Virus record (IMG/VR): IMGVR_UViG_3300046171_000267
Coordinates: 3,698-67,697 of that record
Direction: 5' to 3' (one strand)
DNA from: a virus
DNA: 64,000 bases
Each line of letters opens with the position of its first letter. Within the stretch, counting starts at the first letter, position 1. Below are positions 26,302-42,962 of the stretch, one piece after another. Position numbers and translations under genes: made by a program. The notes under the pieces are model-generated. The model was not told the DNA's origin and made no database searches. It saw only the letters and a list, made by a program, of their open reading frames with translations.

Positions 26302-26511
26302 TTAGCTCTTATGGCATCTCTTGCCAAGTCTTCTATCTCTGGGCTTAGGTTCATTCCACTCCTTTGCTTTTTCTATTGTTATCTCAGTAATCTGTCCGTC
26401 CACCTCTACTTCAAAAGGAACAATAGTATCCTTTTGGTAGAGAAGTTCTTCAAGTTGCTGAGTCGTTAGTTTAATCGATAGACTCTCGTCCATTACATTA
26501 TGAATTATCAT
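26302..26511 (-). CDS. Hypothetical protein
   Basis: ORF in operon with ATGA overlap. Confidence 0.45.
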   Translation of the reverse strand: MIIHNVMDESLSIKLTTQQLEELLYQKDTIVPFEVEVDGQITEITIEKAKEWNEPKPRDRRLGKRCHKS

Positions 26512-26798
26512 TTTGATTTAAGAATTGGATATTCGTTTTCGATCCCATCAAGAATCTCACGAACCTCCCAGTCGCACTCTCGCCACTCGTTGATTCGCTT
26601 GACCGCATAGCTTATGTTTGAATGAATCCTGTCGAACTCTTTACCGATAGCTATCTGTGTGTTCTTTTTCTTAAAGCTGTAGAACATCGCTATCTGACGA
26701 GCTAAGGCTACATTCTTTAAGCGGGATCGTGAGTTTATATCGGGAACTGTAACTCCCATATACTTTGCTACTATTTCTTTTATAGCACTGATTTTCAT
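26508..26798 (-). CDS. Stand-alone DnaA domain IV (DnaA-box-binding HTH)-like protein
   Basis: IKEIVAKY.GV...DI.SRSR..NVALARQIAMF...IGKEFDRIHSNISYAVKRI closely follows the DnaA C-terminal signature. Confidence 0.85.
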   Translation of the reverse strand: MKISAIKEIVAKYMGVTVPDINSRSRLKNVALARQIAMFYSFKKKNTQIAIGKEFDRIHSNISYAVKRINEWRECDWEVREILDGIENEYPILKSK

Positions 26799-27715
26799 TA
26801 GTGGTCTCTGGATTCTCTATGGTTATGGAACTGAACGACGAGTTCCTCTTCAAATTTAGGATTGTAGTCTTTGCCCATAAAGTGAGCCCATATCTCTGGG
26901 TACTCATCGCCATGAATCTTGAATCGCTTTGGTGGTGGCACTTCATCGTTGGCTACTGCCAAATCACTGCTGTTAGTAATGCAGTCACCACATACAACCT
27001 TCTCGCTCATATTCTTGCCAATTCCCATGAGTGTGCCGTCACTAAAGCTACCAGTAGCATCACAGTCATCACAGGTAGACTCGCCTTCCTCATCTCTTTG
27101 GGGCGTTTGGACAAGAAATGAGTGTTTCCCGTATTTAGTTAAATGGGTTACAAGTGCATCATACCTAGCAATAGCCTCAGATTTATCACCAAAGCACTCA
27201 CCGAGAACATACTCATTGCTGTCATCGTTTTTTACATCAACGATCCAACACTCATTCTCATCATGCTCATGGGAATCATTTCGTATGACAACCTCATGTC
27301 CACTGATTATTCCACTGTATCGCTCAAAGCCTTCATCACTGAGTTGCATCTTGTCTCGCTCTACCTTTAGATTGTCCTCGTATACACAATCCTCTACATC
27401 ATTCTGTACGCCATACCTGAGCGAGAGATAGATATTATCATCAGTAATTTGACTGATTGAACAGGTAGCAAATCCTCCGCTCTTGAGCCTGAAGTCTCGC
27501 CTAGCATCAGCTTCGACCTTATCCATAATCTGTTTCAGCTTATCAGTCTCTTCATCACTGAGACCTGTAGGCTCAGGATGGGAAAGATACTGGTAAGTCG
27601 CATCATTCAGAAAATCATCGTGACACATATTTTGCACCATCAGTTCAGCCTCAAGAGCAGTGTCTGCAAACACTTCATGAGAAACATATACTTTTACACT
27701 TACTTTGAACTTCAT
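26798..27715 (-). CDS. Hypothetical protein with CxxC...CxxC zinc ribbon
   Basis: 305-aa ORF; CDDC...CGDC. Confidence 0.55.
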   Translation of the reverse strand: MKFKVSVKVYVSHEVFADTALEAELMVQNMCHDDFLNDATYQYLSHPEPTGLSDEETDKLKQIMDKVEADARRDFRLKSGGFATCSISQITDDNIYLSLRYGVQNDVEDCVYEDNLKVERDKMQLSDEGFERYSGIISGHEVVIRNDSHEHDENECWIVDVKNDDSNEYVLGECFGDKSEAIARYDALVTHLTKYGKHSFLVQTPQRDEEGESTCDDCDATGSFSDGTLMGIGKNMSEKVVCGDCITNSSDLAVANDEVPPPKRFKIHGDEYPEIWAHFMGKDYNPKFEEELVVQFHNHRESRDH

Positions 27716-28041
27716 TACTTATCTCCTTCTATATATTCTTTGTATTTATTTAGTTGTTTTTCGTTGTTGATCCATATCTCACCAATCTTGATCTTGGTGC
27801 TGACATTTGAATAACAGCGATAGTAGTTGAGAGCCTCGTCCACACTGCTGAATGTGCCAAAGTAGCCACGCCTGCAGTTCTTGAGGTATCTCTGTTTTTG
27901 TTGACCCGTGTATCCTTTGCGAAGGACTTCCACCCTCCATTTTTCCTTTATGCTTTCGGGTATCCTGAGCTTGCTGGTTTCATAGAAACACCGCAGGAAA
28001 GGGAACTTACGGTATAGTAGTATTTTTATTTTATTAATCAT
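27715..28041 (-). CDS. Hypothetical protein
   Basis: ORF tightly packed in operon. Confidence 0.5.
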   Translation of the reverse strand: MINKIKILLYRKFPFLRCFYETSKLRIPESIKEKWRVEVLRKGYTGQQKQRYLKNCRRGYFGTFSSVDEALNYYRCYSNVSTKIKIGEIWINNEKQLNKYKEYIEGDK

Positions 28042-28631
28042 TGTTTTAAGAACGGGAAGTGCTCTTCGACTTTCCGTTGGAATGTGATAATATTATCGAG
28101 CTTTGCCTCTATACGCTGTATCTGCTCGCCAACATCAGGGGCTTCGGTACGATTGACATTGGATGGACTGATCATGCTAATCAGTTTTACAAGCTCAGCA
28201 CCCAAGTCATGCGGTGCGGGATCAGGCGGAGTGATAGGAAGAGATGGCTCACCGAACACATCCTCATCGTTACTCTCAAGCGGAAGCTCAATACCAACTG
28301 TCTCGACCACAGTGGGCTCAACAGTAGACTTAACATCCTTGAAAGGATTTTTCCTGCCACTCTCTACAGATATCTTGCCATCCTCTAGAGCGTCCAGTGT
28401 CTCGCTAAGGATTTGATCTCTACGCTGATCCAGAGCGATCTGCATATCTGCAGGGTCTTCAGGCCAACCGCCAAGTGGGGCAGACAGGAATGATCCGTCC
28501 TGATCAGTCACCAAGTTGAGCAGAGCAGTAATCTTCGTGCCGTAGGTGTCGTTAATAAATGAGACGATCTTGCCCTTGTAGGCATCGTTATCGTTCTCGA
28601 ACTTTTTAATAGCTAATAATGTTTCGTTCAT
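28038..28631 (-). CDS. Hypothetical protein
   Basis: 197-aa ORF in operon. Confidence 0.55.
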   Translation of the reverse strand: MNETLLAIKKFENDNDAYKGKIVSFINDTYGTKITALLNLVTDQDGSFLSAPLGGWPEDPADMQIALDQRRDQILSETLDALEDGKISVESGRKNPFKDVKSTVEPTVVETVGIELPLESNDEDVFGEPSLPITPPDPAPHDLGAELVKLISMISPSNVNRTEAPDVGEQIQRIEAKLDNIITFQRKVEEHFPFLKQ

Positions 28632-28746
28632 TTCCTTTTCTTGAATGATTTTGATTTTTTAAATGGGCGATTGCCCTTGTGTGGATTTTTGCGAACCTTG
28701 ATCTTTGACATATCCATGTCTGCCAATTTTCGCTTGTTAGTCTCTT

Positions 28747-29100
28747 TCATGAGTTTTCATTAATCCTTTCCAGTTGCTCCTGTAGTTCGTTCTCTACCCA
28801 TCTCTCCCTGCCTTCCTTTAGGATTTCATCCAATCGGAAAGTGCCGCTACGCAATAGGCCGCCCAATGTGCCGTATTCATCAAAGGAGATTTCTTTGACT
28901 TCAAATACTGAAACAATTCTCATATCAGACCACAGGCCGTCTGAATCAATGCTGGTGCAACTATACTGCCAGCAGAGAAATAAGTTTTCCCAATTGTCAT
29001 CCCATTTGTCACGAGGAGTTGTTGTGGCAACAGGGATATAATCGTAATACTCAAAGTCCCCGTCCCTACACTTTTCTGTAATTAAGTAGTATTTCTTCAT
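28747..29100 (-). CDS. Hypothetical protein
   Basis: 117-aa ORF in operon. Confidence 0.55.
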   Translation of the reverse strand: MKKYYLITEKCRDGDFEYYDYIPVATTTPRDKWDDNWENLFLCWQYSCTSIDSDGLWSDMRIVSVFEVKEISFDEYGTLGGLLRSGTFRLDEILKEGRERWVENELQEQLERINENS

Positions 29101-29138
29101 ATAAATATGGAGGACTTACACCTTGCGGATGCCTCCTG

Positions 29139-30005
29139 TTAGATAGCGTAGGCGAGGTTCTCAGCTTCCTGCTCAACAGGAGGAAACTCGTCGTTGAAAC
29201 CAGAATGCTTCTCAAGCAAACTAAGGACACCCTGAGTGCGAGCGACACGGTCATCGAACTCCCACTTCTTGGCGATCTCTGTGAAGGCATTCTGAAATGC
29301 CCAGAAGTCATCACGCTCAAACTCCTCATGACAAGGCTTGCGGTACTCGTCACGCCACAGACCAACAGCAGATGAAGACTTGTGCAATGCACCCCTGTCA
29401 GTCTTGGAGTCCTTGGTGAGCTCGTACTCTTCCAAGTAATCAATCGCCTCACCGTAAATCTGGCGACGAACCTCAGGCTTGAGCTTAGTCTCCTTGAAGA
29501 ACTGGACACGATTGTGAGTACGCTCGAAGTCGTACTTCAGTTTACCCACAGCATCTGATACCCGTTTGGGTAGCTCGTCGAGGATACCCTGTGTATGTTT
29601 GTGACCAATGACATGATCATTGGAAAAGCACATATTATCACAGATAAACACCCGTGTACCAACTGACAGCAGAGCCCGTGATGCACATGAGTTGCTGTTA
29701 CGAAGCCCAATGGTTGGCGTGTACTCAGTAGCGTCCGACTTGACATCGATCACTCCAAAGAACTTGTCAATCTTGAGGGTATCACCCTTCGGGCCATTGG
29801 GGCCACCTTCGACTTGCTGTAGGGCAAACTCAGTGTCCTGCACTTTGTAGCCGTGCTTGGTAAGCTGTGAGACAGCCAGATCAATCAGATCAGAGTGACG
29901 AAATGGCTGGTGCGTTTTTGTGTGTGGATTAGCCAAGGGTAAGCCCTTCAGGAGATCGTAACTCACGATCTTGCTATCCGAGGATTCGCGGCATATTCTG
30001 CTCAT
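29139..30005 (-). CDS. DUF932/DUF945 family protein
   Basis: THQPFRH.DL..., IGLRNS......L.VGTRVFICDNMCF...HKHT motif. Confidence 0.8.
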   Translation of the reverse strand: MSRICRESSDSKIVSYDLLKGLPLANPHTKTHQPFRHSDLIDLAVSQLTKHGYKVQDTEFALQQVEGGPNGPKGDTLKIDKFFGVIDVKSDATEYTPTIGLRNSNSCASRALLSVGTRVFICDNMCFSNDHVIGHKHTQGILDELPKRVSDAVGKLKYDFERTHNRVQFFKETKLKPEVRRQIYGEAIDYLEEYELTKDSKTDRGALHKSSSAVGLWRDEYRKPCHEEFERDDFWAFQNAFTEIAKKWEFDDRVARTQGVLSLLEKHSGFNDEFPPVEQEAENLAYAI

Positions 30006-30010
30006 TTGAT

Positions 30011-30709
30011 TTAGTTATTGGTGGCAGTCATTCTTTTGATATTTGCCTCGATGTGCACCTTGTCTGCCTTAAGGCTTGCACTGAGACCTATGTTATTGAT
30101 GAATTGATCACGCTCTGCAGGGGGCAGTGTGTGAATCAGTTTGAGCCATTCAGCTCCGCCATATTTTGGCTTGCGGGGAGTCTCCGCAGTGATTGCTTCT
30201 CCTCCATCCCATCCGATATCATCAGGGATAGAGTCGGCTAAAAGTTCTAGGGTCAGCCTGTCATTCTCGTTCTCACCATTGCTTGCCCGATTGATCAGCT
30301 TGAGTAACTTCTCGGCATTCTTGGCAATGCCTGCTTGCTTGATTATTTCCCAGAACAGCTTGGGGTTGGTAGCCTGTACAGGGAAGGCATTGCCAGTATC
30401 GATACCGATATCGGACATCGTGTCCTCTTTGTCTTTACTCGGAACCTTTGGAGACGATGTATCAAACTTAACATCACCAAACTGAAACCCTGAAGGAACG
30501 ATGCGACCCTCTTCAAGCTTATCAAGCTCTTCAAAGACAGCATTCGAAGCTTCTATTCGTACCTCACTTAGGAGATAGTCAGCTTGTTGCTGTAGCATTT
30601 TAGCACGAAAGAATTTTTCCTCCGTACCCTCTGGTACATTCAGATGTGTACGCTGTTTAGAATTAGACTTTTTCTTAGTCTCTTTGACTGGTATATTTAG
30701 ATCACTCAT
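30011..30709 (-). CDS. Hypothetical protein
   Basis: 232-aa ORF directly downstream of a motif copy. Confidence 0.55.
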   Translation of the reverse strand: MSDLNIPVKETKKKSNSKQRTHLNVPEGTEEKFFRAKMLQQQADYLLSEVRIEASNAVFEELDKLEEGRIVPSGFQFGDVKFDTSSPKVPSKDKEDTMSDIGIDTGNAFPVQATNPKLFWEIIKQAGIAKNAEKLLKLINRASNGENENDRLTLELLADSIPDDIGWDGGEAITAETPRKPKYGGAEWLKLIHTLPPAERDQFINNIGLSASLKADKVHIEANIKRMTATNN

Positions 30710-30711
30710 AT

Positions 30712-30728
30712 CTAGTTTATTAGGTTAC
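30712..30728 (-). promoter_or_regulatory. Recurrent phage motif copy (GTAACCTAATAAACTAG)
   Basis: Identical to the copy upstream of the capsid gene; fills the intergenic gap. Confidence 0.7.
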
Positions 30729-31505
30729 TTAAGCAGCCCGTAAATTTTGACTGCGGTTGAAATTATCTTCATTAACAATGAAGTGCTCCTTGCCTCCCTT
30801 GGCATCACCCTTAGCCTTGAGTGCAATGATGTCACCATTACGGGTAAGGTTCATAAGATCGGAGTTATCGCCATCATAGATCGGGCGACCAAGGAACCAC
30901 TCAGGGAAGTCCATATCAAAGACAACGGACATAGGCAGGTCAGTCTTCATAGCTCGCTCAACAGATGGCTGGTATGCAGGAGCACCTGACCAAGAGAACA
31001 TGAGCCTGTAGTTGTCAGGAGTCTTGAGTAGGCGACCACTGAGCTTGGTGTAGTCGTAGAAGAATATATCAGGGAACTCCTGAGGTATCTCATACTTCTC
31101 CCATACGATGTCACTGATGACATTGAGTCGCATGACAGGCAGTACGCCTGTTGAGTTGCAAAGCTTTTGAAACTTGGATAACTCATCCCTGAGCTTGGAC
31201 AGGAAAGCATCGGGGTCATTGCGTAGCCAGTCACGCTTACCCTCACGGGCAGCCTGAACAGGCTTCATCTTGCCACGCCCTGCAGACATCAGGCAGGATC
31301 GTTGGCAGTCAGCAGACTTAGATGCAGGACAAGCCCAGTCGCTTGGAGCGAGTGAGAGACCGCCAACACGAAAGGCAGTGACATGAGATTGCATGACAGA
31401 GCCAAGCCATGTGTACAGCAGGTCATCTGTCTTGTTGTTAGTTTTGCGAAGCTTGGTGTTACCACCGTTAGCTCCGCCAGTATCGAGTAGTTTATTGATC
31501 TTCAT
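30729..31505 (-). CDS. GP88 family phage protein
   Basis: CPAS..ADC..SCLMSAGRG, RLNVISDIVWE, FYDYTK motifs. Confidence 0.8.
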   Translation of the reverse strand: MKINKLLDTGGANGGNTKLRKTNNKTDDLLYTWLGSVMQSHVTAFRVGGLSLAPSDWACPASKSADCQRSCLMSAGRGKMKPVQAAREGKRDWLRNDPDAFLSKLRDELSKFQKLCNSTGVLPVMRLNVISDIVWEKYEIPQEFPDIFFYDYTKLSGRLLKTPDNYRLMFSWSGAPAYQPSVERAMKTDLPMSVVFDMDFPEWFLGRPIYDGDNSDLMNLTRNGDIIALKAKGDAKGGKEHFIVNEDNFNRSQNLRAA

Positions 31506-31830
31506 TGTGATTATTATGTATTTTTATTAGGTCATTAGCCTGTTTGTCTGTGGCGATGACTGATATAGATTTGTTTTTTGAGTCCCATATGACCAGTGGG
31601 CCACATGGGATGGCTACCCCTGAGACTGATTCCCTAATAATGGCAATGCTTGCCCTGTGTTGCATCATGAATGCCTCGGATACCTCCATAGGCATCCTTT
31701 GCATACAGTAGTGAGCGAAAGCTTCAGCCGACAGTGACTGCTTTTCTGTTGAGAGCATGAGTGTGGTCACTATCTCCAGCATTTCATCACAGGGTGTGAT
31801 TGTTATGGGTATTTTTATTTCCATCTGCAT
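31492..31830 (-). CDS. Hypothetical protein
   Basis: ORF in operon. Confidence 0.5.
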   Translation of the reverse strand: MQMEIKIPITITPCDEMLEIVTTLMLSTEKQSLSAEAFAHYCMQRMPMEVSEAFMMQHRASIAIIRESVSGVAIPCGPLVIWDSKNKSISVIATDKQANDLIKIHNNHNEDQ

Positions 31831-32519
31831 TTAATCATTTTCATGCAGTTCCCCCTCGTGAACCGCATATCTTTGTGTTTGAGGACAAACCCCTCAAGGT
31901 CAGGCCAATCAAGATGCCTGTGCTTTTTATTCTTTGAATGATGCCTCCATATCTCCTCCATATCAGGACAGCCCGATTCGTTTGCCAGCTCAGCGTCGTC
32001 AAACTCGTTGTACATGACTTCGTTTGCACAAATAAAGTCTGAGCACAGTGGACGGGAGATATTAGGAGCTAGGGTAGGGTCTAGCATGATTGCGTAGTCC
32101 ATCCACATATGGGTTATTTTCCTTCTTTCCCCGTGTGGCGTATCTCCGCAGTACAGGGCGTTGTAGTAGACAATATCAAAAGGGTAGAATACTCCTTTAT
32201 ATAGCTCGCCATGCACGACTGACTTTGTCCACCGCCACTTGAATTGTTCCTTGATATCGGGATTCGCAATCGCATCAGCCAGTTGTGATAGGATGTTAGT
32301 CGGAGCCCCCTCATGACTTGTACCTTTTACATGAGGAGTCAGATCAGTCATCTCCTCACCGTGTCTGTTGTAGAACTTACCGTATTCCATGATACAGTAT
32401 GTCCCGTTAACCTTGGGAGAAACATAGTAGTCACCTATGTTATTCACCAAAGACCCTACAACAGCAGGAGATATAGAATGAGCAGGACGCATAGCCCCTA
32501 AGTGATGAGAAGGATTCAT
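31815..32519 (-). CDS. ATP-dependent ligase/capping-family nucleotidyltransferase domain without OB domain
   Basis: Motif I SPKVNG, III VHGEL, IIIa YPFDI, IV EGFVLK, V MIKCR; likely ATG at 32519 (ATGA overlap). Confidence 0.7.
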   Translation of the reverse strand: MNPSHHLGAMRPAHSISPAVVGSLVNNIGDYYVSPKVNGTYCIMEYGKFYNRHGEEMTDLTPHVKGTSHEGAPTNILSQLADAIANPDIKEQFKWRWTKSVVHGELYKGVFYPFDIVYYNALYCGDTPHGERRKITHMWMDYAIMLDPTLAPNISRPLCSDFICANEVMYNEFDDAELANESGCPDMEEIWRHHSKNKKHRHLDWPDLEGFVLKHKDMRFTRGNCMKMIKCRWK

Positions 32520-32782
32520 CCGATCATCTCCTTGTATGCAGGACGAATGACTGACTCTAAGAGCAAGCCACCACCGAATGATCTCGGCTGGCATTTATTC
32601 AGGAAATCCTCAAAAGTCCAGTCCTCTCCCTTATCCTTAAGAAACAGCCAAAGCTTTTTCATTTTACTCATGTCACCCAATGGAAGCCTGAGTGAGGCTT
32701 GATTTATATATAGCTCCATAGAGCCATCATCATGATTAGTTTCGGTCATCGTAGTGACCCCTAGTTTATGTATCTTGTGCAT
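32516..32782 (-). CDS. Hypothetical protein
   Basis: ORF in operon. Confidence 0.45.
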   Translation of the reverse strand: MHKIHKLGVTTMTETNHDDGSMELYINQASLRLPLGDMSKMKKLWLFLKDKGEDWTFEDFLNKCQPRSFGGGLLLESVIRPAYKEMIG

Positions 32783-32954
32783 TTTCTATTTCCTTGTATC
32801 CTGCCTCTTGAAGTAAGCCGACAAACTGCAGGTAATGTTCGAGACAAGAGAATTGAATTTCCTTATCTACCGTTTTGCTGACTTGGTAATGAATGTAGTA
32901 CAAAGGCTGCGCTACATCCTGAATTAATTTTTGAGTATAAGTTTTAGGTTTCAT
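32766..32954 (-). CDS. Hypothetical protein
   Basis: ORF in operon. Confidence 0.45.
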   Translation of the reverse strand: MKPKTYTQKLIQDVAQPLYYIHYQVSKTVDKEIQFSCLEHYLQFVGLLQEAGYKEIENAQDT

Positions 32955-33895
32955 CTGTTTGGTTTCCTTACCTTGTAGATAACCTGAGGATATCTACCTG
33001 TTTTATCAGGGATGGGCGGAATAAGTATCTGCTGTCCCTGCATATTTGTGTAGTAGTCCGACCTAAGTGTACGGACATGGCCTATTCTGCCATTCTCTAG
33101 AGAGCGTGGGATGCTGGCATTGCCTTGCTTCTTTGCATATTCCCTGACCACCCTTGGCAAATAAACAACTCTCATCAGTCCTCCCTTATCGGGTACACTG
33201 AATCCCTTGGACTTGAGCTTACGCTTGGTTCGCTCGTCCTTCTTGTTGATTTGTTGAGGGCGAAAATATGAGATAGAGCTGTAGGCGAACACAGCCAAGA
33301 GCATCTTAAGTGAGCTCATGATTGTGTTACCAACAACCATAGGATCACCTAGCTCCCTAACGATATCGGAATCTTTCCACGCATGGGCAGTCTCCATGAT
33401 ACCATCGTTCAATTGATCAAAGGAGTATTCCAATGGGATATTCCCGTAGCATTTACCCTTAGATGTCTTGATGGCATACATAAGAACCTCGCCCCCGTCG
33501 AAGATGGGTACTTCCCGCTTATGCCAGTATCTGTTTAGCCAAAAGTACATAGACTCGCAGTACTGACCATCCCACTGATCCGTGAATGCTCCTGCTTCGA
33601 GCATCTTGCGTAAGTGATCGATAATCTCATGAGTGCTACCCCTTGAGACAGAGATGTCATACACCTCGTCTGCCTCATACTGCACTCTTAGCGTCTTGGC
33701 AGGCCATTTGACCTCACCAAAGGTGCTGTCCACCTTACAGGCATTGATAGCCTGCATAGCTGACTTCTCTACAAACATAGTAGAGTGATTAGTCATCAGC
33801 CTAGCATCCAATGCCAGACTGACAGCCTCAGGCAGAATTTTTTCCATATTCCAAAGCCCCTTGGCTGATTGCATTATTTGTTCTGTTCTTGTCAT
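32951..33895 (-). CDS. Hypothetical phage protein (C-terminal RIGHVR motif)
   Basis: Likely ATG at 33895 directly after a motif copy. Confidence 0.55.
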   Translation of the reverse strand: MTRTEQIMQSAKGLWNMEKILPEAVSLALDARLMTNHSTMFVEKSAMQAINACKVDSTFGEVKWPAKTLRVQYEADEVYDISVSRGSTHEIIDHLRKMLEAGAFTDQWDGQYCESMYFWLNRYWHKREVPIFDGGEVLMYAIKTSKGKCYGNIPLEYSFDQLNDGIMETAHAWKDSDIVRELGDPMVVGNTIMSSLKMLLAVFAYSSISYFRPQQINKKDERTKRKLKSKGFSVPDKGGLMRVVYLPRVVREYAKKQGNASIPRSLENGRIGHVRTLRSDYYTNMQGQQILIPPIPDKTGRYPQVIYKVRKPNR

Positions 33896-33908
33896 ATAGT
33901 TTACTAGG

Positions 33909-34205
33909 TTACTTATCTTCCTTGTAGAGCAACAGCCCCTCAAAGTCCTCTACTGACCGCTCATGAAAGAAGTCAGGGAAGTCGCAAGCTTCCGAGGTGA
34001 ATCCGCAGTGCGGACACTCGATGTTGTCGCAATCATCCGTGCTATGGAGCATGACATGACCGCACTGACCGCAGGTCACGATGTTAATACCAGTTTTCTC
34101 GATGACCCGCTGAGCCATCTCGCACTGCTGATCCCATCGTTGTTTCACGACTAAAGCTCTCTCTCTTCGGTCATTCATAATATTGTTATCGCACATTATA
34201 TTCAT
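33909..34205 (-). CDS. Zinc-ribbon protein
   Basis: CGQCG...CPHCG. Confidence 0.6.
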   Translation of the reverse strand: MNIMCDNNIMNDRRERALVVKQRWDQQCEMAQRVIEKTGINIVTCGQCGHVMLHSTDDCDNIECPHCGFTSEACDFPDFFHERSVEDFEGLLLYKEDK

Positions 34206-34207
34206 AA

Positions 34208-34483
34208 TTATATCCCGTTGAATGAGGTTGATACCTGAGGCAAGAATCCATTCCTGCCATTCTCATGAAGGTATGCTCTCAAGTACAGAGATACATCCTC
34301 ATATGCCTCCCTGCATCCTGCCTTGGTACGCTTGTACTTCTTGTCAGTGATCATTGAGGCTTGCTTGAGAACTTCAGTCATGGTGAGGCTTGAGTGCTTC
34401 ATGCCCACAGACATCATTCTCAGGTGGCCCTTGATAAACATAGCCTTCACGGCCCTTCGCTTGGGGTTTAATATTATACTCAT
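34208..34483 (-). CDS. Hypothetical protein
   Basis: ORF in operon. Confidence 0.55.
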   Translation of the reverse strand: MSIILNPKRRAVKAMFIKGHLRMMSVGMKHSSLTMTEVLKQASMITDKKYKRTKAGCREAYEDVSLYLRAYLHENGRNGFLPQVSTSFNGI

Positions 34484-34779
34484 ATTTGATCCTCCATTAG
34501 TTTTGACCCTATGGTCTCGGATATTCTTATGATCGACTGTATACCCTTTTGAATTACCTCTCTGCCCGTAGACAGGTTCTCTTGATCATTCATGGGACGA
34601 ATGTAGTGATTACGCCCGTGAAAGCTCTCAAAGGGGAAAGCTTCCATAGCGTCCTGTAGTTTGATTGCAAAGTTAGTCCACTCATTGATGAGAGATTCCC
34701 TTGAATTGCCGTTCATGTGAACTGCAGGCATAACAGCCTGCGCCACAAACTTTTCATGTGCTGTAAGTTCCTTACTCAT
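34480..34779 (-). CDS. Hypothetical protein (PxVHMNGNS...HGRNHY motif)
   Basis: Motif seen in phage early genes. Confidence 0.55.
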   Translation of the reverse strand: MSKELTAHEKFVAQAVMPAVHMNGNSRESLINEWTNFAIKLQDAMEAFPFESFHGRNHYIRPMNDQENLSTGREVIQKGIQSIIRISETIGSKLMEDQI

Positions 34780-34890
34780 CTCTCAGCATCATGTACAGGG
34801 CGAACCCTGAGGTTAATAACACACATGACGCAAACAGCCATGTGAACCCATAAACAATTATTGTTTCCATATCCTTCCCCTTCTAGTTAT

Positions 34891-35106
34891 TTAGGTTACA
34901 TCGTACACAAAGTCGATAGCTTTGTTCGTTCTGATCAGCTCATCGAGCTTCCTAATAGCTACATCACGATTGGCTTTGGCGTAGTCGCCATCGTCAGCCT
35001 CGGCAATGTCCTGAGCCATCTCCCCAATTTTATTGAGGAGATCAATTTTATGACTAAATAGGCAATCCTTTACCATTGCCTGTCCTTCTTTTTTATCTTC
35101 TGGCAT
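34891..35106 (-). CDS. Hypothetical protein
   Basis: First ORF downstream (on the - strand) of the non-coding element. Confidence 0.5.
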   Translation of the reverse strand: MPEDKKEGQAMVKDCLFSHKIDLLNKIGEMAQDIAEADDGDYAKANRDVAIRKLDELIRTNKAIDFVYDVT

Positions 35107-35109
35107 AAT

Positions 35110-35690
35110 ATTTTATTTTGTTGTGTTAGTGTTGGTTAAATTGTCCGTCGTTGTGTCCCGTCAGCCCCCTTCCCGCTGACAAGCGTAGTACTACTCCCGT
35201 ATAACCTCAGTGTACCTGAGGTAGTACTCCCGTATATAACACAACAACAATGATGAGATAAAATCTGCCTGCTTTTTGTCGAGAAGCAGGTGAAACTCGT
35301 CTTTCTGTTTGTTTGTTTGTTTGTTACCCAAAGGGTAGGGTGGTTCCTGCGAACATAAGGAACCCAAGCAAGTACGCTATGCTCCCCTTGGGATAAAGTG
35401 ACGGCTCTTTGGGATGGCAGGCCTCACCCTCGTCACGGGATTGTTCGCACAGCCATCATTCTGCTTCTTTTAAAGACGAAGTCGCCTCCAGAGAGCCGAA
35501 CTATTTAGAGCTAGTTATACTCTAGGGATACTGCAGGTACACTCCTACCGAGTGTCGTAGAGGTATCCTTGTTTGCCTAGCCTCCATATGGAGCCACAAA
35601 GCGTACCTGCAGAAAGTGAAAATTGATCGGGGAGCGGTGCACCAAACAGTAGAGGCAGTCAGTGCTACGATATCGTGATAGGAAAGAGGT
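35110..35690 (+). ncRNA. Putative large structured non-coding RNA or structured DNA element
   Basis: ~590 bp with no ORF of 60 aa or more; more than 12 complementary helices including long-range and loop-loop pairings; wobble pairs are G-U on the + strand. Confidence 0.55.
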
Positions 35691-35697
35691 TCCATAA

Positions 35698-36036
35698 TTA
35701 GAACCTTCCTGTTTCATAGTTATAACCTTTAACTTTTCCAATTACCTTGCCCGTCAAGTTTGACTTTCTCAAAATTGATTTAGGGCATGAATCAATTACC
35801 GTTTCAAGAGAAGCCTTATAAGGATTCAACTTGATATCATTTGAGCCGATTACATCAAGAGGGCTTGCAATCGATTGAGCTTTTTTCTTGATTGGCAATC
35901 TTTTATATTTTGCCCTTGCTTGCTCAATCTTTTCCAATCGTTCAATCTCTTTTATTGTGCTTATAGAATCATTCATTTCACTTGATGTGTTTGAATGCCA
36001 AAATTTATTTTCCTTTTTTATTTCTCTTTTATTCAT
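35698..36036 (-). CDS. Basic hypothetical protein (putative leading-region gene)
   Basis: 112-aa ORF; atypical composition. Confidence 0.55.
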   Translation of the reverse strand: MNKREIKKENKFWHSNTSSEMNDSISTIKEIERLEKIEQARAKYKRLPIKKKAQSIASPLDVIGSNDIKLNPYKASLETVIDSCPKSILRKSNLTGKVIGKVKGYNYETGRF

Positions 36037-36037
36037 T

Positions 36038-36529
36038 TTAATTTTTTCCCTTATTCATTAAGGATTCATTCAAATCAACCCATATTCTTTCCGCTTGCTC
36101 TAAAGCCCGTTTGGCTTTTCTTCTTACTCTTGCCGATTGCCCGTTTACGGAAAGATCATATTTTTCATTTACCCAATCAAAGTCTATATTTACCCAACGC
36201 TTATTTGAGCCGTCAAATTTTCTTGCCCGTCTCAATCCAAACCTTACAGAATCAATAATTGAGCCGTCTTTTTTCGTTTCAATTACAAGCTCTCGTAAAG
36301 TCAATTTTGCCCTAAAGCTTTTCCTTTGAATGAAAGAGCCGTGAAATAATTTCAACGCGGGCATGTATGAAAGCCTTTGATATCTTGTTTTCCAATTACC
36401 ATTTTCCTCTTGGTAATCATGAGAAGTTTGACGGGAAAGTAAAAAGCCTTGATTTTTTCTACCGTCAATATGCGATTGAGCCCGTAAATATCTAAAGCCC
36501 GTTCGTTCAACATTCTTTTTATAATTCAC
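36038..36529 (-). CDS. Basic hypothetical protein (putative leading-region gene)
   Basis: 163-aa ORF with GTG start; atypical composition. Confidence 0.55.
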   Translation of the reverse strand: MNYKKNVERTGFRYLRAQSHIDGRKNQGFLLSRQTSHDYQEENGNWKTRYQRLSYMPALKLFHGSFIQRKSFRAKLTLRELVIETKKDGSIIDSVRFGLRRARKFDGSNKRWVNIDFDWVNEKYDLSVNGQSARVRRKAKRALEQAERIWVDLNESLMNKGKN

Positions 36530-36552
36530 TTTTTACTTTCCCGTCTTAAGTT

Positions 36553-37206
36553 TTACTTGATTGGCAAGCTCTTTTGTTTTGCTTGATTGAGCTTGTCGTT
36601 TTCTTTGTATTTTATGCCCTTTGAATCAAGAAAAGCCTTAAGTTTTGCTTGCCCTTGTAAGCCCTTTGCAATGGCTTTTTGTGCAACCTTTGATCTCTTG
36701 ACGGCTTGGTTATCAGTAAGCAAAGCCCTTGAAACAATTTGAAAGCAAGGTTTTTCCTCGTGTATTACCCCGTCAATTTTCGTTTCCAATATTTTAACGC
36801 CTTTAAGGGCAAGAGTTTTTCCTAAATCTTTGCCCATTTCCTTATCACTTGCCCGTTCGTTCAAGCCCTCTTTTCTTGCAAGGGTAATCTCATTCAATTG
36901 GTCTTTAGTCAAGGGCTTGACATTTCGACGAACGGAAAACTTGCCCTTGCTTTCCGTTAAAATTTCCCCGTCCGAAATAATCCCAACATTACCGAGCCCT
37001 TCCCGTTCTGCTATTATCAAAGCTTGAAAGGTAATCGCATTAATTTTGGGCAAGCTCTTTTCAATTCTCTTTTCAAGAGCTCTTTTATTTTTCATGAATT
37101 GAGGAAAGGTAATCTTTCCGCTTTCCATCAAGGTTTTGGTTTGACCAAGTTTGGTAAGTGAACACGCGAGCGTATCACTCAATTTGTATTGAGGTGTTAT
37201 TTTCAT
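36553..37206 (-). CDS. Basic hypothetical protein (putative first early gene)
   Basis: 217-aa Lys-rich ORF; atypical composition. Confidence 0.6.
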   Translation of the reverse strand: MKITPQYKLSDTLACSLTKLGQTKTLMESGKITFPQFMKNKRALEKRIEKSLPKINAITFQALIIAEREGLGNVGIISDGEILTESKGKFSVRRNVKPLTKDQLNEITLARKEGLNERASDKEMGKDLGKTLALKGVKILETKIDGVIHEEKPCFQIVSRALLTDNQAVKRSKVAQKAIAKGLQGQAKLKAFLDSKGIKYKENDKLNQAKQKSLPIK

Positions 37207-37495
37207 TGTATTGTTTTGTTATTATTTAGTAAGTACTTTTCAGTACATTGATTAATTGCGAGCCCTTGCTTTTTGCTAATGGCTCTTGAAAGTTTTTACT
37301 AGTCTCTAGGCTTTGCCCTTTCTTGGTTGGGATGGTTGCAATCTCTCAAATCATGAGATGCAAAAAGATCAAGAGCCGTTGGGCTTTGATCGAGTTGAAT
37401 ATATGTAAATGAAGATTTGATACATAGGATGAATTTTAATTGTTGCGTACCAATGCTTTACGAAACAAGTGTAACCTAACTAAGATTAGGTAACA

Positions 37496-37521
37496 GGGGG
37501 GCGAAGGGGGGGGAGGGGGGG
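37496..37521 (+). other. Poly-G tract G6-CGAA-G8-A-G7 (G-quadruplex-capable; candidate terminus/packaging-site region)
   Basis: Directly visible at the divergence point between the - and + gene blocks. Confidence 0.5.
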
Positions 37522-37627
37522 TCATTATTCTGTATTATATGTACCTTTTCTCAACTTTCTGGCATCCAAAACACTTCTAGAACGCCTATTCCAGCCCCAT
37601 ACACCCCCCTAAAAAGGCTTTGGGGAG

Positions 37628-37656
37628 TTGACGCAGGGGTAAACACCTAGTAAACT
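37628..37656 (+). promoter_or_regulatory. Sigma70-like promoter TTGACG-17-TAAACT overlapped by palindrome ACCTAG-TAAA-CTAGGT
   Basis: -35 at 37628-37633, -10 at 37651-37656, ATG at 37667. Confidence 0.6.
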
Positions 37657-37666
37657 AGGTAACATT

Positions 37667-40600
37667 ATGTCACGAGATCGATTTTATATTCCCGTAGTTA
37701 GCGATGTAATCCGTCTTTTTACTGGCGGTGGTGGTAGCAGCACACCTAGCACCCCAGACATACCAACAACTACTGTTAACAGGGCAGATTATTTAAATAC
37801 TTTAGACCCAATTGTCATTACTGACACAAATAGCAGTCCACTTACTACTAATTTAGTAAATGTTCCGATAGTAACGGGTGGTAACTTGGCTCCACTGGAC
37901 ACGAATCAGCAGATTATGCTGATTACTGACCCGATGAGGAATGCTCAGATAAATGCATCGATTATAGGTGAAATTAATCGAGCCAATAGTCTTGAGGATT
38001 CAGTTGCTGGAATAGATAGTCACCCACTTATTCAGCAATTGAGGGATGGCGAGATTACAGCAGAGGACATTACTGGGGAAAGTGCAGAAGCGGGGAATCA
38101 AATTGAGGCTACTCCGCTAAGTGCTAGTTTTCAGTATGAAATTAATGGCAATCCTGTCTCTAAGGAGACCTATGATGCTTATATTAATCCTGATGGGTCA
38201 TCTAAGGTTCCTGAGGGCTTTCTTGATGGAATGTTTCCGACCAATGAGGGTACTGGTATTGAATTTGGCACTGAGAATAATACTACTCAACCGACTGTAC
38301 CAGTAGTCACTGACACAAATCAGACAGTTTTTTATGATATTAATCAGACTAACCCTGATTTTGACAACAATGTAACATCTCCGTTCACTTCAAATTTAAA
38401 TCCAGCCGATTACGACTTGGATATGAGTAGGGACTCAGTGTTAGATGATTACACTGGTAGTGATTACAACTTTACGATGCCTATGCCTGATTTTACTGAC
38501 ATCAGTGTTAGGGATCAGATGATTGAGGCAATTAGGAGTTTTGAAGATGATAATTCATCGAAACCAAAGGAGCCTATTATTTCTAATAAGGTAAAGAATG
38601 CAGTCAAGGGATTGGTTCCTATAATAAGAGAAGCAGCTAGTGGTGATATTATAGGAGCGCTCAAGGAGGGGAAGAAGTTAATTAAGGGGGAGCAAGACAA
38701 GGAGAAGAAAGCCAAAGACTCGGATACTCCGACTAAGACAGCAGAGGAGATACAGGCGGAAAAGGATGAGGCTGATTATCAGAAGGCATTAGATATACTT
38801 GGCAGACCTGATCGTGCGGAAGCGCTGGCACAATCGCTGGCCAATGCAGGAATTATGGTTGATCCTCGAACAGTCCTTGAGGGTGATGTGCTTTTTTCTG
38901 AGGATGAATTTTTTACTCTTCATAAGATAATACAGGAGGAGAAGAGGAAAAACGGGGAGTTCATGCAGAGCTGGGAAGACTTTTATAAGTCATGGAGTGA
39001 GGTTGGCAAGATTGAGGAGTATGTACATACGGATGTTAGTTTTGATACCACAGGAAATCTGGAAGAGATAATTGATCCGATTAGGCAAAAGGTAATGATG
39101 GCAAAAATGATGGGCAAGAATTTGCTCGTTGTTTCGGATGAGGAGTATGATCGAATGTTGTCTGAGAATCCTGATTATGCACAAACTGCATACTTATCAG
39201 AAACTGACTTTATGCAGTATGCTGGGGCAGATCAGTATTTTGGGGAAGGAGCCACTTCAGAAGGTACGGAGCCTGAGAAAGAGGGCTACATGAGAAGTTA
39301 TGATGTCCTTAAGGCTATACGGGATGGTACATATGTTCATCCTGATCTTGAGTACGGGCCAGAATCAAAGGAAGACCCATTTTATAGTATTTCTATTCCA
39401 AATGCCGATACTAGTGGGCCAAGTGATGTAAGTAACATTTTGTTACCAGCTACTGCTGTAAATACGGCTCAAGATATAAAGCCCAGTGACCGAATTGATC
39501 AGTACTGGGAAAGTAGGGGGATGACTGAGGATGACTTTGGGAATCCTTTGTATGTAGAGGTAGACGGTCAAAAGGTAAGAAACCCTAACTTTGCTGCACC
39601 AATAAATGCCAATGATCTGGCACACCTGTATGATTTTAATGTCAATGATCCTGAGCATATCCAGACATTGTTCGATCCGCAGTCTATGAACTTTGCGGAT
39701 GAAAGTATATTTCCTCAGGGAACAAATCCTACCCCGCTAAATGTATATAAGCCTAATGAGGATGCATCTAGTGGGATGGTGGATCGCTATGGTGCAGATA
39801 TGAGGTTTAAGGACACAAATAGAGAGCGTTTTGATAGATATTATCGCTCACTACCTGTGTCATCTTACTCTTCTTACGGAGAGCCTGCGGGGGCACGGAA
39901 AGCAGGAAACTTCATGTCTCCATTAATGGATAGGCTGGGTGATCCTTTTTCAATCGTAGGGGATAGTGTGGGTTATGCTCTTGATACTGCAGCTAAGCCC
40001 TTTAATGCTTTGGGTGAGAAGCTTGGTGGGGCAGGGTTTATTCCGAATCTTATGGGAGCAGGTTTATCGGGAGCAGGTAACTTTGTTTCCAGTCTTGGGC
40101 AAAGAACAGATGATTTTATCGGAAACACAATCCCCGACTTTTTCTTTCAGGATGTACCGCAAACATTCAGAGGTGCATATCAGACGTATCAGGGTGATCC
40201 TGCAGGTAGAGTAAACCTTAGGCAAGGTGCTACGGGTATGCTTGATGGATTAGGGCAAACAGTAATGGTTCCAATAGGTGCAGGAATGGATGGAGTACGA
40301 TCAGTAGTACAGCCTTTTAGCAGACCTGAATCAGATAATCCATTGGATAATATGCGGTTCCCAACAGTGCCTCAACAAGGAGTTTCGCCACTCACTGAAA
40401 TCATGAGAGACAAGTATTTCCCGCAAGATGGAGGTTCTTCTTCTAGTAGTTCGTATATACCTACAGGTGATTGGGTAGTAGAGGACGGCATGATGCGTAA
40501 CCCTAGTGCATACAATAGTCAAGATGGTGCAAATAGTAGCTCTGGTAGAAGAGGTGCTAAATTTGGAGGAGTATCAGATCGTCTTTCAGATAAATATTCT

Positions 40601-40897
40601 AAGAACGGAATTAATCTTAATTCTCCAGACGGCAGGGCAGCCTTTGAGTCTGCTTACGGGAAGGAAGCCTTGGATGATGCTCTTAGGGAAGTTGGATTAG
40701 GGCATCTTGCAGGAACAGGAGTAGCATTAGAAGGAGAAGAGCCTGACTTATTTAAAGTTGTAGATAAAGAAAGCAACCTAAGGACACCTTATGGAGGTAA
40801 GACAATGCCATCTCCTGTAGATAAGCTTGGAGAAACCATTGCCGCAGCAGTAAAGGACGATGATGAAGAAGATGGAGCCTTTGATAAGGCACTTTAA
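37667..40897 (+). CDS. Large acidic hypothetical protein (virion/ejected-protein-like)
   Basis: 1076-aa ORF; Gly-rich amphipathic C-terminal segments. Confidence 0.6.
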   Translation: MSRDRFYIPVVSDVIRLFTGGGGSSTPSTPDIPTTTVNRADYLNTLDPIVITDTNSSPLTTNLVNVPIVTGGNLAPLDTNQQIMLITDPMRNAQINASIIGEINRANSLEDSVAGIDSHPLIQQLRDGEITAEDITGESAEAGNQIEATPLSASFQYEINGNPVSKETYDAYINPDGSSKVPEGFLDGMFPTNEGTGIEFGTENNTTQPTVPVVTDTNQTVFYDINQTNPDFDNNVTSPFTSNLNPADYDLDMSRDSVLDDYTGSDYNFTMPMPDFTDISVRDQMIEAIRSFEDDNSSKPKEPIISNKVKNAVKGLVPIIREAASGDIIGALKEGKKLIKGEQDKEKKAKDSDTPTKTAEEIQAEKDEADYQKALDILGRPDRAEALAQSLANAGIMVDPRTVLEGDVLFSEDEFFTLHKIIQEEKRKNGEFMQSWEDFYKSWSEVGKIEEYVHTDVSFDTTGNLEEIIDPIRQKVMMAKMMGKNLLVVSDEEYDRMLSENPDYAQTAYLSETDFMQYAGADQYFGEGATSEGTEPEKEGYMRSYDVLKAIRDGTYVHPDLEYGPESKEDPFYSISIPNADTSGPSDVSNILLPATAVNTAQDIKPSDRIDQYWESRGMTEDDFGNPLYVEVDGQKVRNPNFAAPINANDLAHLYDFNVNDPEHIQTLFDPQSMNFADESIFPQGTNPTPLNVYKPNEDASSGMVDRYGADMRFKDTNRERFDRYYRSLPVSSYSSYGEPAGARKAGNFMSPLMDRLGDPFSIVGDSVGYALDTAAKPFNALGEKLGGAGFIPNLMGAGLSGAGNFVSSLGQRTDDFIGNTIPDFFFQDVPQTFRGAYQTYQGDPAGRVNLRQGATGMLDGLGQTVMVPIGAGMDGVRSVVQPFSRPESDNPLDNMRFPTVPQQGVSPLTEIMRDKYFPQDGGSSSSSSYIPTGDWVVEDGMMRNPSAYNSQDGANSSSGRRGAKFGGVSDRLSDKYSKNGINLNSPDGRAAFESAYGKEALDDALREVGLGHLAGTGVALEGEEPDLFKVVDKESNLRTPYGGKTMPSPVDKLGETIAAAVKDDDEEDGAFDKAL

Positions 40898-41204
40898 AAG
40901 GTTCAGGAAAGTTCTAAAGCTAGAAGAAGTATCCCTGCTGGCTTTAGTTCGTGCTTTTTTTGTTACCGCACCGTTTTGGTTGTTGGCAAATAAGCCTGAG
41001 ATAAGAGAATGGAAAAGAAGATACAAGGTCTGCCTTAAGTGTCCGATTTTTGACAAGGAGTTAAGAAGGTGTCGCCCCTTTAACGGATCGAGCCGTGGGT
41101 GCGGATGCTATGTTCCTTTTAGTAATATATTCTACGATGAGTGCTGGAGTAGAAAAGAATACGGTGGCGATTACGGTTGGTCATCAAGTGATCAAGAATG
41201 GTGA
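40860..41204 (+). CDS. Cys-rich DUF6171-like protein
   Basis: R..VCLKCP.....RRC.....CGC......C pattern. Confidence 0.55.
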   Translation: MMKKMEPLIRHFKRFRKVLKLEEVSLLALVRAFFVTAPFWLLANKPEIREWKRRYKVCLKCPIFDKELRRCRPFNGSSRGCGCYVPFSNIFYDECWSRKEYGGDYGWSSSDQEW

Positions 41205-41591: not shown

Positions 41592-41906
41592 ATGAAAAGA
41601 AACACCCCTCTTCGAAGGAAGACCCCCTTAAAGCGAGTCTCGAAAACTCGACAAAAAGCCTTGAAGACATACTCAAAACTGCGCCAGAGCTTCCTACAGG
41701 AATTGCCATTATGCGAGGTTTGTCCAACCGTAAAAATGGATCAAAGAAACCAAAGCACAGATGTACATCACAAAAAAGGAAGAGGAAAGCATTATCTAGA
41801 TGTAGATAGTTGGCTATCTGTTTGCCGACAATGCCATGATCGGATTCATGTGAATCCGTCTTGGGCGAGAGAAAAGGGCTATTTACTAGAACCAGATCGT
41901 AAATAA
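41592..41906 (+). CDS. HNH endonuclease
   Basis: CEVC...TDVHHKKGRG...WLSVCRQCHDRIH. Confidence 0.85.
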   Translation: MKRNTPLRRKTPLKRVSKTRQKALKTYSKLRQSFLQELPLCEVCPTVKMDQRNQSTDVHHKKGRGKHYLDVDSWLSVCRQCHDRIHVNPSWAREKGYLLEPDRK

Positions 41907-42138: not shown

Positions 42139-42198
42139 TGTCTAAGCTTTGATAACCAAAGTATACCTCGAAAAAAAAAATTTTTCAAGTTATTTAGG

Positions 42199-42678
42199 TT
42201 ACAACATGAACATTGATTTATTTAGGTTATCATTAGGTACGAAATAAGCAGGCGCTCCATAGTTCCCGTAATCTTTTTCCCACTCTTCTTTCTTGGCATC
42301 CTCTGAACTTATCCATCCGTTGTAAATAAAGCCATCAAGGTTACCACTCATGCTTACACAGATCATGTCATTATCATCAGGACGAACTTTGAGCTTTCCA
42401 GTATTGCTGAATCTTACCTCAATATTGTCTCCCACATCTGCCACATGAAAGGTATTCTTTGTGTGGCTGAAATATACACCCATCAATTTACAGAACGCCA
42501 TTTCTGCACATGATGACATTTGATGATTTAATAATAATTGCCCTGCGTATTTCTCTGGAAACCTTGATTTACGCTTGTTTACAACGGAATCTGCATGACG
42601 CATAAGTCCCGTTGTGCAACCCACAATTATCTCTTGCTCAGTTAAGCAGATTGTTCTTTCTTCCGTGCTAATTCCCAT
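42199..42678 (-). CDS. Hypothetical phage protein (degenerate PD-(D/E)XK-like)
   Basis: AEMAFCK...ADVG.NIEVR...GWI...A...PAYFVP. Confidence 0.5.
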   Translation of the reverse strand: MGISTEERTICLTEQEIIVGCTTGLMRHADSVVNKRKSRFPEKYAGQLLLNHQMSSCAEMAFCKLMGVYFSHTKNTFHVADVGDNIEVRFSNTGKLKVRPDDNDMICVSMSGNLDGFIYNGWISSEDAKKEEWEKDYGNYGAPAYFVPNDNLNKSMFML

Positions 42679-42929
42679 GCCGACCCTTGGTATCCGTCAC
42701 CTTGCCAGACAAACACAGGAGTATATTCTCCTGTATAAGCTGATCCTATATTGTGATCGAAGTTTTCTATAGACTCCTCTAGAGACCAATTACTTTTAAT
42801 CATCTGCTTCTCGATTATTTTTTCGATTGAATATACCGCTCGTCCCTTTCGGAAATCCTTTCCAATTATGCAATCGTCAAAACCATCAACAATAATTACA
42901 CCCTCATCAAAATCAAAGTCTTCCAACAT
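42642..42929 (-). CDS. Conserved phage hypothetical protein (DGFDDCIIG...NIGSAY.GE.TP)
   Basis: Motif common in aquatic phages. Confidence 0.65.
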   Translation of the reverse strand: MLEDFDFDEGVIIVDGFDDCIIGKDFRKGRAVYSIEKIIEKQMIKSNWSLEESIENFDHNIGSAYTGEYTPVFVWQGDGYQGSAWELARKKEQSA

Positions 42930-42962
42930 CTAATAAATTAGGTTACAAATTAATAAAAAAAA

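Follow-up and report, generated by a model that had tools for sequence, protein, structure and literature searches.

A gene-free, helix-enriched gap in the genome of an uncultured marine phage, with positional analogues in related phages

We analyzed a stretch of viral DNA of 64,000 nucleotides (nt), referred to here as the window, which corresponds to bases 3698-67697 of the 67.7-kb linear contig IMGVR_UViG_3300046171_000267 (IMG/VR); the contig is without end repeats and its estimated completeness is 72%. The subject of this study is the gene-free gap at 35107-35697 (591 nt), which lies between two minus-strand genes. Upstream of it in the leftward direction is a gene for a protein of 112 amino acids (aa) that belongs to no family (35698-36036, minus), the last of three small leftward genes that start from a divergent region at 37207-37666, and downstream is a 71-aa gene (34891-35106, minus), also of no family and without a Shine-Dalgarno motif. 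A reading of the sequence by itself, the original prediction, had proposed a new large, pseudoknotted RNA antisense to these genes or, alternatively, a DNA signal such as an origin or an injection stop. We find that the gap is a real and unusual non-coding stretch that is enriched in helices, shows a hint of expression and has a positional parallel in related phages.

A non-coding stretch with an excess of helices

Gaps were called as the spaces between open reading frames (ORFs) of at least 70 aa, and 35107-35697 is the largest of the eight gaps of at least 250 nt in the window (the runner-up measures 460 nt), in agreement with its earlier description as the longest ORF-free gap. The gap was characterized by its ORF map, codon usage and inverted repeats. 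The five ORFs inside it (36-58 aa) have codon-usage log-odds between -0.147 and +0.019, comparable to those of 142 spurious ORFs (mean -0.099, standard deviation 0.092), none of which reached the scores of the flanking genes (0.299 and 0.164). These scores confirm that the stretch is non-coding. The 57-aa ORF at 35522-35695 was rejected as a gene despite a Shine-Dalgarno-like motif, given its codon score of -0.147; of the two strain substitutions that fall within it, one is synonymous and one is not. A decayed gene was also rejected, since the best tblastx match to 2.3 Mb of sequence from relatives had an E value of 0.048 over 19 residues.

All 13 of the helices that had been listed for the gap have both arms where they had been placed. 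Perfect Watson-Crick inverted repeats are about 3-18 times commoner in the gap than in 60 dinucleotide shuffles, with 21 repeats of at least 7 nt (7.6 +/- 2.6 in the shuffles), 7 of at least 8 nt (1.6 +/- 1.1) and 3 of at least 10 nt (0.17), and the observed count was reached by none of the 60 at any length. When the genome was divided into 423 segments of 591 nt, three repeats of at least 10 nt were found only in the element's own segment, while its count of repeats of at least 8 nt was equaled by 16 of the 423, and the neighboring genes at 35851-36901 hold more short inverted repeats than the gap does. The excess over the shuffles, together with that over the other segments, indicates that the helices are more than chance.

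The signal from fold stability is moderate. The z scores of the minimum free energy (MFE) were -3.68 on the plus and -2.74 on the minus strand for the whole gap, -2.45 and -3.20 for the core (35375-35640), -3.95 and -3.85 for the left part (35107-35330), and -2.43 and -2.48 for 35256-35697. When 638 windows of 300 nt were scanned with a correction for GC content, those of the element ranked 13-38 on the plus strand (with one rank of 217) and 41-225 on the minus strand, and several coding windows folded better. The description of the gap as packed with helices therefore stands as regards the excess of inverted repeats, whereas an outstanding stability of the fold (z -2.4 to -3.9) was not found. 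Similarly, the kissing loop or pseudoknot that had been proposed is a complementarity of 7-8 nt and by itself does not go beyond chance, as shuffles give like matches (on average 1.6 repeats of at least 8 nt and 7.6 of at least 7 nt). The elements of the gap, from right to left, are as follows.

35686-35707, both strands: hairpin that overlaps the 112-aa gene's stop codon, terminator-like in either direction with weak T tracts (terminator scan)
35381-35635: core domain, closed by the 7-bp helix GCTCCCC/GGGGAGC; basis of covariance model R1
35402-35418/35452-35498: helix of 11+6 bp in the core
35531-35540/35603-35612: 10-bp helix in the core
35404-35602: part covered by strandless metatranscriptome contigs, a hint only
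35342-35364: 7-bp hairpin GGTTCCT/AGGAACC with a 9-nt loop
35306-35325: (TGTT)5 microsatellite
35252-35301, minus: composite hairpin, with a 7-bp stem (35291-35267) and then CAGAUUUUAU; proposed terminator
35252-35301, plus: composite hairpin, with 11 bp including three G-U pairs, within a 6-bp outer helix, and then a U-rich tract
35188-35203 and 35221-35236: two 16-nt direct repeats, 15/16 identical, 33 bp apart
35204-35222: 7-bp hairpin between the direct repeats
35118-35128/35237-35247: perfect 11-bp inverted repeat with arms 108 bp apart, bracketing the left part
35160-35180: 6-bp hairpin
35107-35145: AT-rich stretch
35110-35139, minus: sigma-70-like promoter match (TTAACC, 18 nt, TAAAAT; 9/12 matches)
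35236-35264, plus: promoter-like match

The linker originally described as (GTTT)4 is thus present as a tetranucleotide tract, which we read as (TGTT)5. With regard to the 11-bp inverted repeat, a helix of 11 occurred in 1 of the 60 shuffles. The window contains three matches to the 16-nt direct repeat where 0.24 would be expected; the third, with three mismatches, lies outside the gap, and the two copies in the gap may be protein-binding sites. The palindrome GTAGTACTAC was considered as a repeated operator and rejected, because it has only two copies in the window, both in the gap, against 0.9 expected. The candidate minus-strand terminator at 35291-35256 consists of a 7-bp stem with four G-C pairs, a 9-nt loop and the tail CAGAUUUUAU. 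The promoter match at 35110-35139 stops 3 nt short of the start codon (ATG) of the 71-aa gene and might yield a leaderless or near-leaderless mRNA; such matches are equally frequent in shuffles.

Strains, RNA libraries and related phages

The gap was compared among closely related copies of the locus. The metagenome contig L002 is 99.4% identical over 3195 nt with 2 differences within the gap, while a second one, L003, is 89.5% identical and ends at 35773, outside the gap. Contigs from two DNA runs, together with L002, diverge from the window by less than 1% from 33500 to about 35563 and by 4-10% rightwards from about 35579; this step in divergence, at about 35563-35600, places a mosaic boundary inside the gap. 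Within the gap the copies that are about 99% identical differ at 2-4 sites, and the differences among strains include two small deletions. The variant 35398 G>T lies at the end of a helix and 35628 C>T is unpaired. The other two fall within helices and give one vote to each strand: 35241 A>G, in the 11-bp helix, makes a U-G pair on the plus and an A-C mismatch on the minus strand, whereas 35609 G>A, in the 10-bp helix, leaves C-A on the plus and G-U on the minus strand.

Two metatranscriptome runs from two studies (X19, X20) contain a small fraction of the sequence words of the element. The contigs from these runs cover 35452-35602 (151 nt, 4 differences) and 35404-35577 (173 nt, 1 difference, 1 gap), and 35404-35602 holds the only good matches of the RNA runs within 33500-37500, the rest being one poor match of 40 nt; in the DNA runs taken for comparison, 29/30 and 30/30 bins of the same region were covered. 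The absence of RNA coverage outside 35404-35602 in the two runs is no proof of silence. These data hint that RNA from the gap is present and that the core is a comparatively abundant RNA.

We searched for the element among known RNA families and in related genomes. No match to Rfam 15, which covers large ornate RNAs, ribozymes, introns, transfer-messenger RNA (tmRNA), RNase P and 6S RNA among others, was found at gathering thresholds in the whole window or in eight loci of relatives, and at E values up to 10 the region 34900-35900 gave only IMPDH RNA (17.1 bits, with 95.4 needed) and sR1 (13 bits, with 45 needed), while ARAGORN found no tRNA or tmRNA gene in the window. This agrees with the original prediction, which had recognized no known RNA family. 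A blastn search of GenBank phages with 34400-36400 found nothing. A search with the large terminase yielded 53 related viral contigs with 56-75% identity, and one with a 104-aa protein (41592-41906) yielded 80 further contigs, six of them at 81%. Among these relatives, BLAST of the element in 22 whole records gave best matches of 14-19 nt with E values of 0.05 or worse, nhmmer at E up to 10 found nothing in 165 related loci (2.3 Mb), and covariance model R1, built on the core, recovered no sequence other than the window from 1.12 Mb and none from another 0.13 Mb. A 16-mer from the core matched five viral contigs, none with further similarity. The search for homologs with compensatory changes therefore ended without a homolog in about 2.3 Mb of related contigs. 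A literature search turned up no description of such an element, which does not imply its absence from print.

Comparable gaps are found in the same place in related phages. In five related lineages an ORF-poor gap follows one to three leftward genes beside the same divergent region and a large rightward gene. These gaps measure 728 nt in L091, 1171 nt in L094, 720 nt in L096 (identical to G006), 1261 nt in G002 (identical to G010), at least 997 nt in G001 and G012, and 587 nt in G004, and the small opposite-strand ORFs inside them translate to junk. In 5/5 relatives' gaps the gene-sense strand has the more negative fold z, with values for the sense and the other strand of -9.9 and -5.6 in L091, -7.9 and -3.6 in G004, -4.6 and -2.2 in G001, -4.0 and -2.8 in G002, and -3.6 and -1.6 in L096.

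The gap of G002 is closed by a GC-rich sense-strand terminator of 13-15 bp (L070:4063-4097, which is G002 44063-44097). By alignment the same terminator is found in G001 and G012, and it is kept among the three while the interior of the gap is not. The gaps of L091 (1672-2399) and L094 (2472-3642) have in common a hairpin stem of about 30 bp, in which the apex has been swapped for an unrelated sequence that still pairs and for which the sense strand is more stable by 10-19 kcal/mol. The L094 gap also carries an insertion of 415 nt between the copies of a 17-nt direct repeat, and a (GTTT)4 tract in the L091 gap is the counterpart of the (TGTT)5 of the window. Among the lineages, the relatives' gaps have no similarity or k-mers in common.

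A proposed folded leftward transcript and the alternatives to it

Taken together, these findings can be read as follows, which we put forward tentatively and with less than even confidence: the gap would be a lineage-specific, structured and untranslated segment of a minus-strand RNA, followed by the control region of the next unit. Starting at the divergent region (37207-37666), transcription would pass through the three small orphan genes and on into a folded RNA of about 440 nt, from 35697 down to about 35256, and would terminate where the U tract follows the hairpin 35291-35267. Such a folded tail would resist degradation and accumulate, and a stable tail of this kind would account for a metatranscriptome signal that comes from the gap alone. 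The remaining 150 nt (35107-35255) would be the control region of the next transcription unit, beginning at the 71-aa gene, with the AT-rich stretch, the two 16-nt repeats around a hairpin and the promoter-like match as its parts. We infer the strand, the ends and the termination of this RNA, as well as any trans-acting role. The position shared by five lineages, the better fold of the gene-sense strand in 5/5 relatives' gaps, the sense-strand terminators of G002, G001 and G012 and the hairpin common to L091 and L094 count in its favor, as do the helix-rich, non-coding character of the gap and the RNA contigs. For the core of the gap, the minus strand gives a slightly better fold (z -3.20 vs -2.45), the variant at 35609 is in favor of that strand, and the GC content of the gap (0.47, vs 0.34-0.41 in the upstream genes) also counts for this reading. 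In the most economical model, a long segment of folded, untranslated RNA is maintained in this phage clade behind the first genes of the leftward operon, and the gap of the window is one lineage-specific version of it.

Several observations weigh against this reading. The proposed tail, 35256-35697, folds equally well on both strands and the whole gap folds better on the plus strand, on which the proposed terminator hairpin is also the stronger (11 bp with three G-U pairs, vs 7 bp on the minus strand); moreover, the composite hairpin was not listed by the terminator scan, because the scan allows loops of 3-8 nt while the minus-strand loop has 9 nt and the plus-strand stem is interrupted. The variant at 35241 keeps its pair on the plus strand only. 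The RNA runs were selected by the element's own words, and their contigs give neither strand nor level. No homolog was found and hence there is no covariation, nor was covariation support found in the relatives' gaps: of 17 substitutions between G001 and G012, 5 are kept, 7 broken and 5 unpaired, and of 9 between L091 and L094, 4 are kept and 3 broken, so that predicted pairs are not favored in either comparison. Beyond a 19-nt microsatellite match, the gap of the window has no k-mer or similarity in common with those of the relatives, and since the gaps are alike in position and not in sequence, they are analogous by position alone. In L096 a terminator-like site on the plus strand stands at the right end of the gap, and G003 has no such gap near the divergent region, its two long gaps being unstructured (z +0.9 to -1.0).

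The gap could instead encode a non-coding RNA of its own on the plus strand, in antisense orientation to the genes on either side. This could be a single large RNA, or one of about 190 nt that comes from the left part and ends at the composite hairpin 35252-35301 with a U-rich (GUUU)n tail. We consider this unlikely. It was first argued from imperfect pairs that are G-U on the plus and A-C on the minus strand, and such pairs do occur in 4/13 of the listed helices, including the 11-bp hairpin with three G-U pairs. The list had been drawn on the plus strand, whose G+U content is the higher of the two (0.521 vs 0.479 on the minus strand), a composition that by itself favors G-U pairs (28/193 pairs of the MFE structure on the plus and 18/175 on the minus strand); both points weaken the argument, and with energies that are strand-neutral the count is correct while its use as evidence of the strand is not upheld. 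The better z of the whole gap on the plus strand (-3.68 vs -2.74) has no parallel in the sub-regions, where the plus strand has no advantage, and the variant 35241 A>G, which pairs (U-G) on the plus strand only, is set against 35609 G>A, which breaks a plus-strand pair. The plus strand has a promoter-like match at 35236-35264 and the terminator-like hairpin at 35686-35707, the former of a kind no commoner than in shuffles; the plus-strand terminator of L096 fits such an RNA, and the RNA contigs are compatible with it, since either strand fits them. Covariation is lacking here as well. With strand-neutral energies, variants that split 1:1 and relatives' gaps that fold better in the gene sense in 5/5 cases, the claim of a plus-strand antisense RNA is not supported. 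A new large structured RNA class, as originally put forward, lacks homologs, covariation, strand evidence and an outstanding fold stability.

The repeats might also act as double-stranded or extruded DNA, in a replication origin, an array of regulator-binding sites or a recombination joint between gene modules; such a DNA-level element appears improbable to us. The enrichment in perfect Watson-Crick inverted repeats is strand-symmetric, and the left part combines two 16-nt direct repeats, 33 bp apart around a palindrome and adjoining an AT-rich stretch, with the perfect 11-bp inverted repeat whose arms are 108 bp apart. Such an element would also be in keeping with the strain mosaic boundary inside the gap, with the replacement of 26.5-40.9 kb in relatives and with the 415-nt insertion and its 17-nt direct repeat in L094. 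For an origin there is little: the AT-rich stretch is present, but there are only two copies of the repeat where three or more iterons would be expected, none of the window's four DnaA-box matches lies in the gap, and the replication genes, at about 42-48 kb with the helicase and nuclease at 44.7-48.0 kb, are 7-13 kb away; there is equally little for an injection stop. The one-strand advantage in the folding of 5/5 relatives' gaps argues for RNA rather than DNA, and the contigs from RNA libraries hint at a transcript. The same stretch could be a recombination joint and also encode an RNA.

Finally, the gap could be a mostly functionless spacer in a fast-changing accessory region, in which only ordinary terminator and promoter hairpins matter. 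The lack of a homolog in anything searched, the moderate fold z that coding windows of the same genome equal, the larger number of short inverted repeats in the neighboring genes and the absence of covariation in the relatives' gaps are all consistent with a spacer. Against it, a densely packed phage retains 591 nt, and its relatives retain 0.6-1.3 kb at the same place; the three perfect inverted repeats of at least 10 nt recur in no other of the 423 segments, tblastx found no trace of a decayed gene, strains show hardly any variation in the gap but differ by 4-10% in the genes to the right of it, and the RNA contigs are confined to it. On balance a spacer seems quite improbable.

The phage, its accessory region and known systems

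The phage is uncultured, widespread and marine, with at least half of the sampled words of the stretch present in 18 DNA runs from seawater or viral metagenomes. The window encodes a large and a small terminase, a DnaB-like helicase and a PD-(D/E)XK nuclease (the replication genes at about 42-48 kb), an SNF2 helicase, a GP88-family protein and two tyrosine recombinases, and the phage looks temperate; a protein of 3465 aa has no Pfam family. Distant relatives of the GP88 protein occur in roseophage CRP-235, Puniceispirillum phage HMO-2011 and pelagiphages (30 records, all below 60% identity), while no GenBank phage record sharing the large terminase was found by tblastn at E up to 1e-10. The 14-kb block at 26500-40900, in which the gap lies, is mostly replaced in the relatives with a 56-75% identical terminase, which keep only GP88, parts of one 305-aa gene and one 330-aa gene of it; this block is a hypervariable accessory region of orphan genes.

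For the six genes around the gap, no family assignment came from Pfam, PHROGs or NCBIfam. Among 5.8 billion proteins the 112-aa protein has a single distant homolog, P0004 (46% identity), and for the 71-aa protein only variants at 91-97% identity were found, among them P0006 (94%), which has a different upstream sequence, and P0007 (91%). Between the 112-aa protein and P0004 the C-terminal 25 residues and the motif LNPYKA(S/T)LE are conserved, while the N-terminal half is not. A structure look-up with the 112-aa protein was uninformative (model pLDDT 0.43). Searches of GenBank phages by tblastn with the 112-aa, 330-aa and 217-aa proteins found nothing, as did a search of viral contigs for related loci with the 112-aa, 71-aa and 1076-aa proteins and alignment A1, and a scan of genome contigs with P0004 gave only a weak and unrelated Bacteroidales match (L004) without similarity to the window. 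In two DNA runs the 112-aa gene has an in-frame skip of 63 nt (35967-36031). Nowhere else in the window are short perfect inverted repeats as numerous as in the three small orphan genes at 35851-36901, to the right of the gap, with up to 35 of at least 7 nt and one of 17 nt, and these counts agree with an earlier remark on the narrow sequence vocabulary of that region.

Some features of expression were seen elsewhere in the window. A Shine-Dalgarno-like motif precedes only 17 of the 67 called genes, and A/T-rich sequence lies before many starts. A quasi-palindromic 22-nt motif with the core CTAGTTTAYTAGGTTAC (plus-strand reading) is found directly upstream of several start codons, for example at 30709, 42929 and 37667, and is a candidate phage promoter or operator; the gap holds no copy of it. 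Its positions in the window are as follows.

23800-23821: copy of the 22-nt motif
30710-30731: copy of the motif
33894-33915: copy of the motif
34881-34902: copy of the motif
42184-42212: copy of the motif
42928-42949: copy of the motif
37476-37494 and 37645-37663: related copies

Promoters of the Bacteroidota type were considered and rejected, as the six intergenic matches to TANNTTTG include none in the gap and none with TTTG upstream.

Long structured 3' untranslated regions (UTRs), and stable RNAs derived from them, occur at the ends of bacterial and phage operons. The proposed segment resembles them in that it is untranslated and folded, comes behind the final gene of a short operon and is followed by a terminator-like hairpin, and a fragment of it seems, on the hint from the RNA libraries, to accumulate as RNA; it differs in its length of about 440 nt, which is unusual for a phage, and in the weakness of the candidate terminator. 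The P4 CI RNA and the P1/P7 C4 RNA are small immunity RNAs of about 70-80 nt, which are processed from an untranslated part of the early operon that they control and whose pairing targets are defined sites within that transcript. Here, too, a temperate-looking phage has a putative stable RNA in an operon of the early type, with no protein repressor recognized nearby, whereas the gap has only generic 8-nt complementarities, no more than expected by chance, and no relation to those RNAs in sequence or in Rfam. By analogy, an RNA from the gap might serve to stabilize the transcript, might be cut by RNase III at long hairpins, or might act in trans like the P4/P1 immunity RNAs.

The packaging RNA (pRNA) of phi29 is an early-transcribed phage RNA of about 170 nt of which the structure and not the sequence is conserved among relatives. 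This recalls the sequence-unrelated folded segments that related phages carry here at one genome position; in contrast, the present phage has ordinary large and small terminase genes, the gaps measure 0.6-1.3 kb, and the likeness among them is one of position only. Models of GOLLD and ROOL are included in Rfam, and both classes are founded on strong covariation, which is absent for the gap. The gap matches neither in Rfam 15 even at E up to 10, and there are no tRNA genes nearby. These large ornate RNAs of phages and prophages are, like the gap, several hundred nt long with many helices and without an established function (bioRxiv 10.1101/2024.12.08.627333, PMC5737381). The gap resembles T5-style injection stops and origins in being non-coding and in carrying both inverted and direct repeats where gene blocks meet, and it differs in that the contig is without terminal repeats and the gap is without DnaA boxes, with two repeat copies only.

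A further-reaching proposal is that an uncultured clade of marine phages with genomes of about 65-80 kb reserves a slot in the leftward early operon for a strongly folded sense RNA of 0.6-1.3 kb, the sequence of which is replaced between lineages. This RNA would build up during infection or lysogeny and have a trans-acting role, for example in RNA-based immunity or anti-defence, the element of the window being a comparatively weakly folded allele. We regard this as a speculative and rather unlikely possibility. If the gap is only a structured operon tail with a control region, it would represent ordinary phage gene-expression architecture and would mainly be useful for annotating the clade. 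If, on the other hand, the slot does hold functional RNAs, they would be large non-coding RNAs of abundant ocean phages that are conserved in position and hypervariable in sequence, a pattern that would point to a role in an arms race, such as immunity, anti-defence or host takeover.

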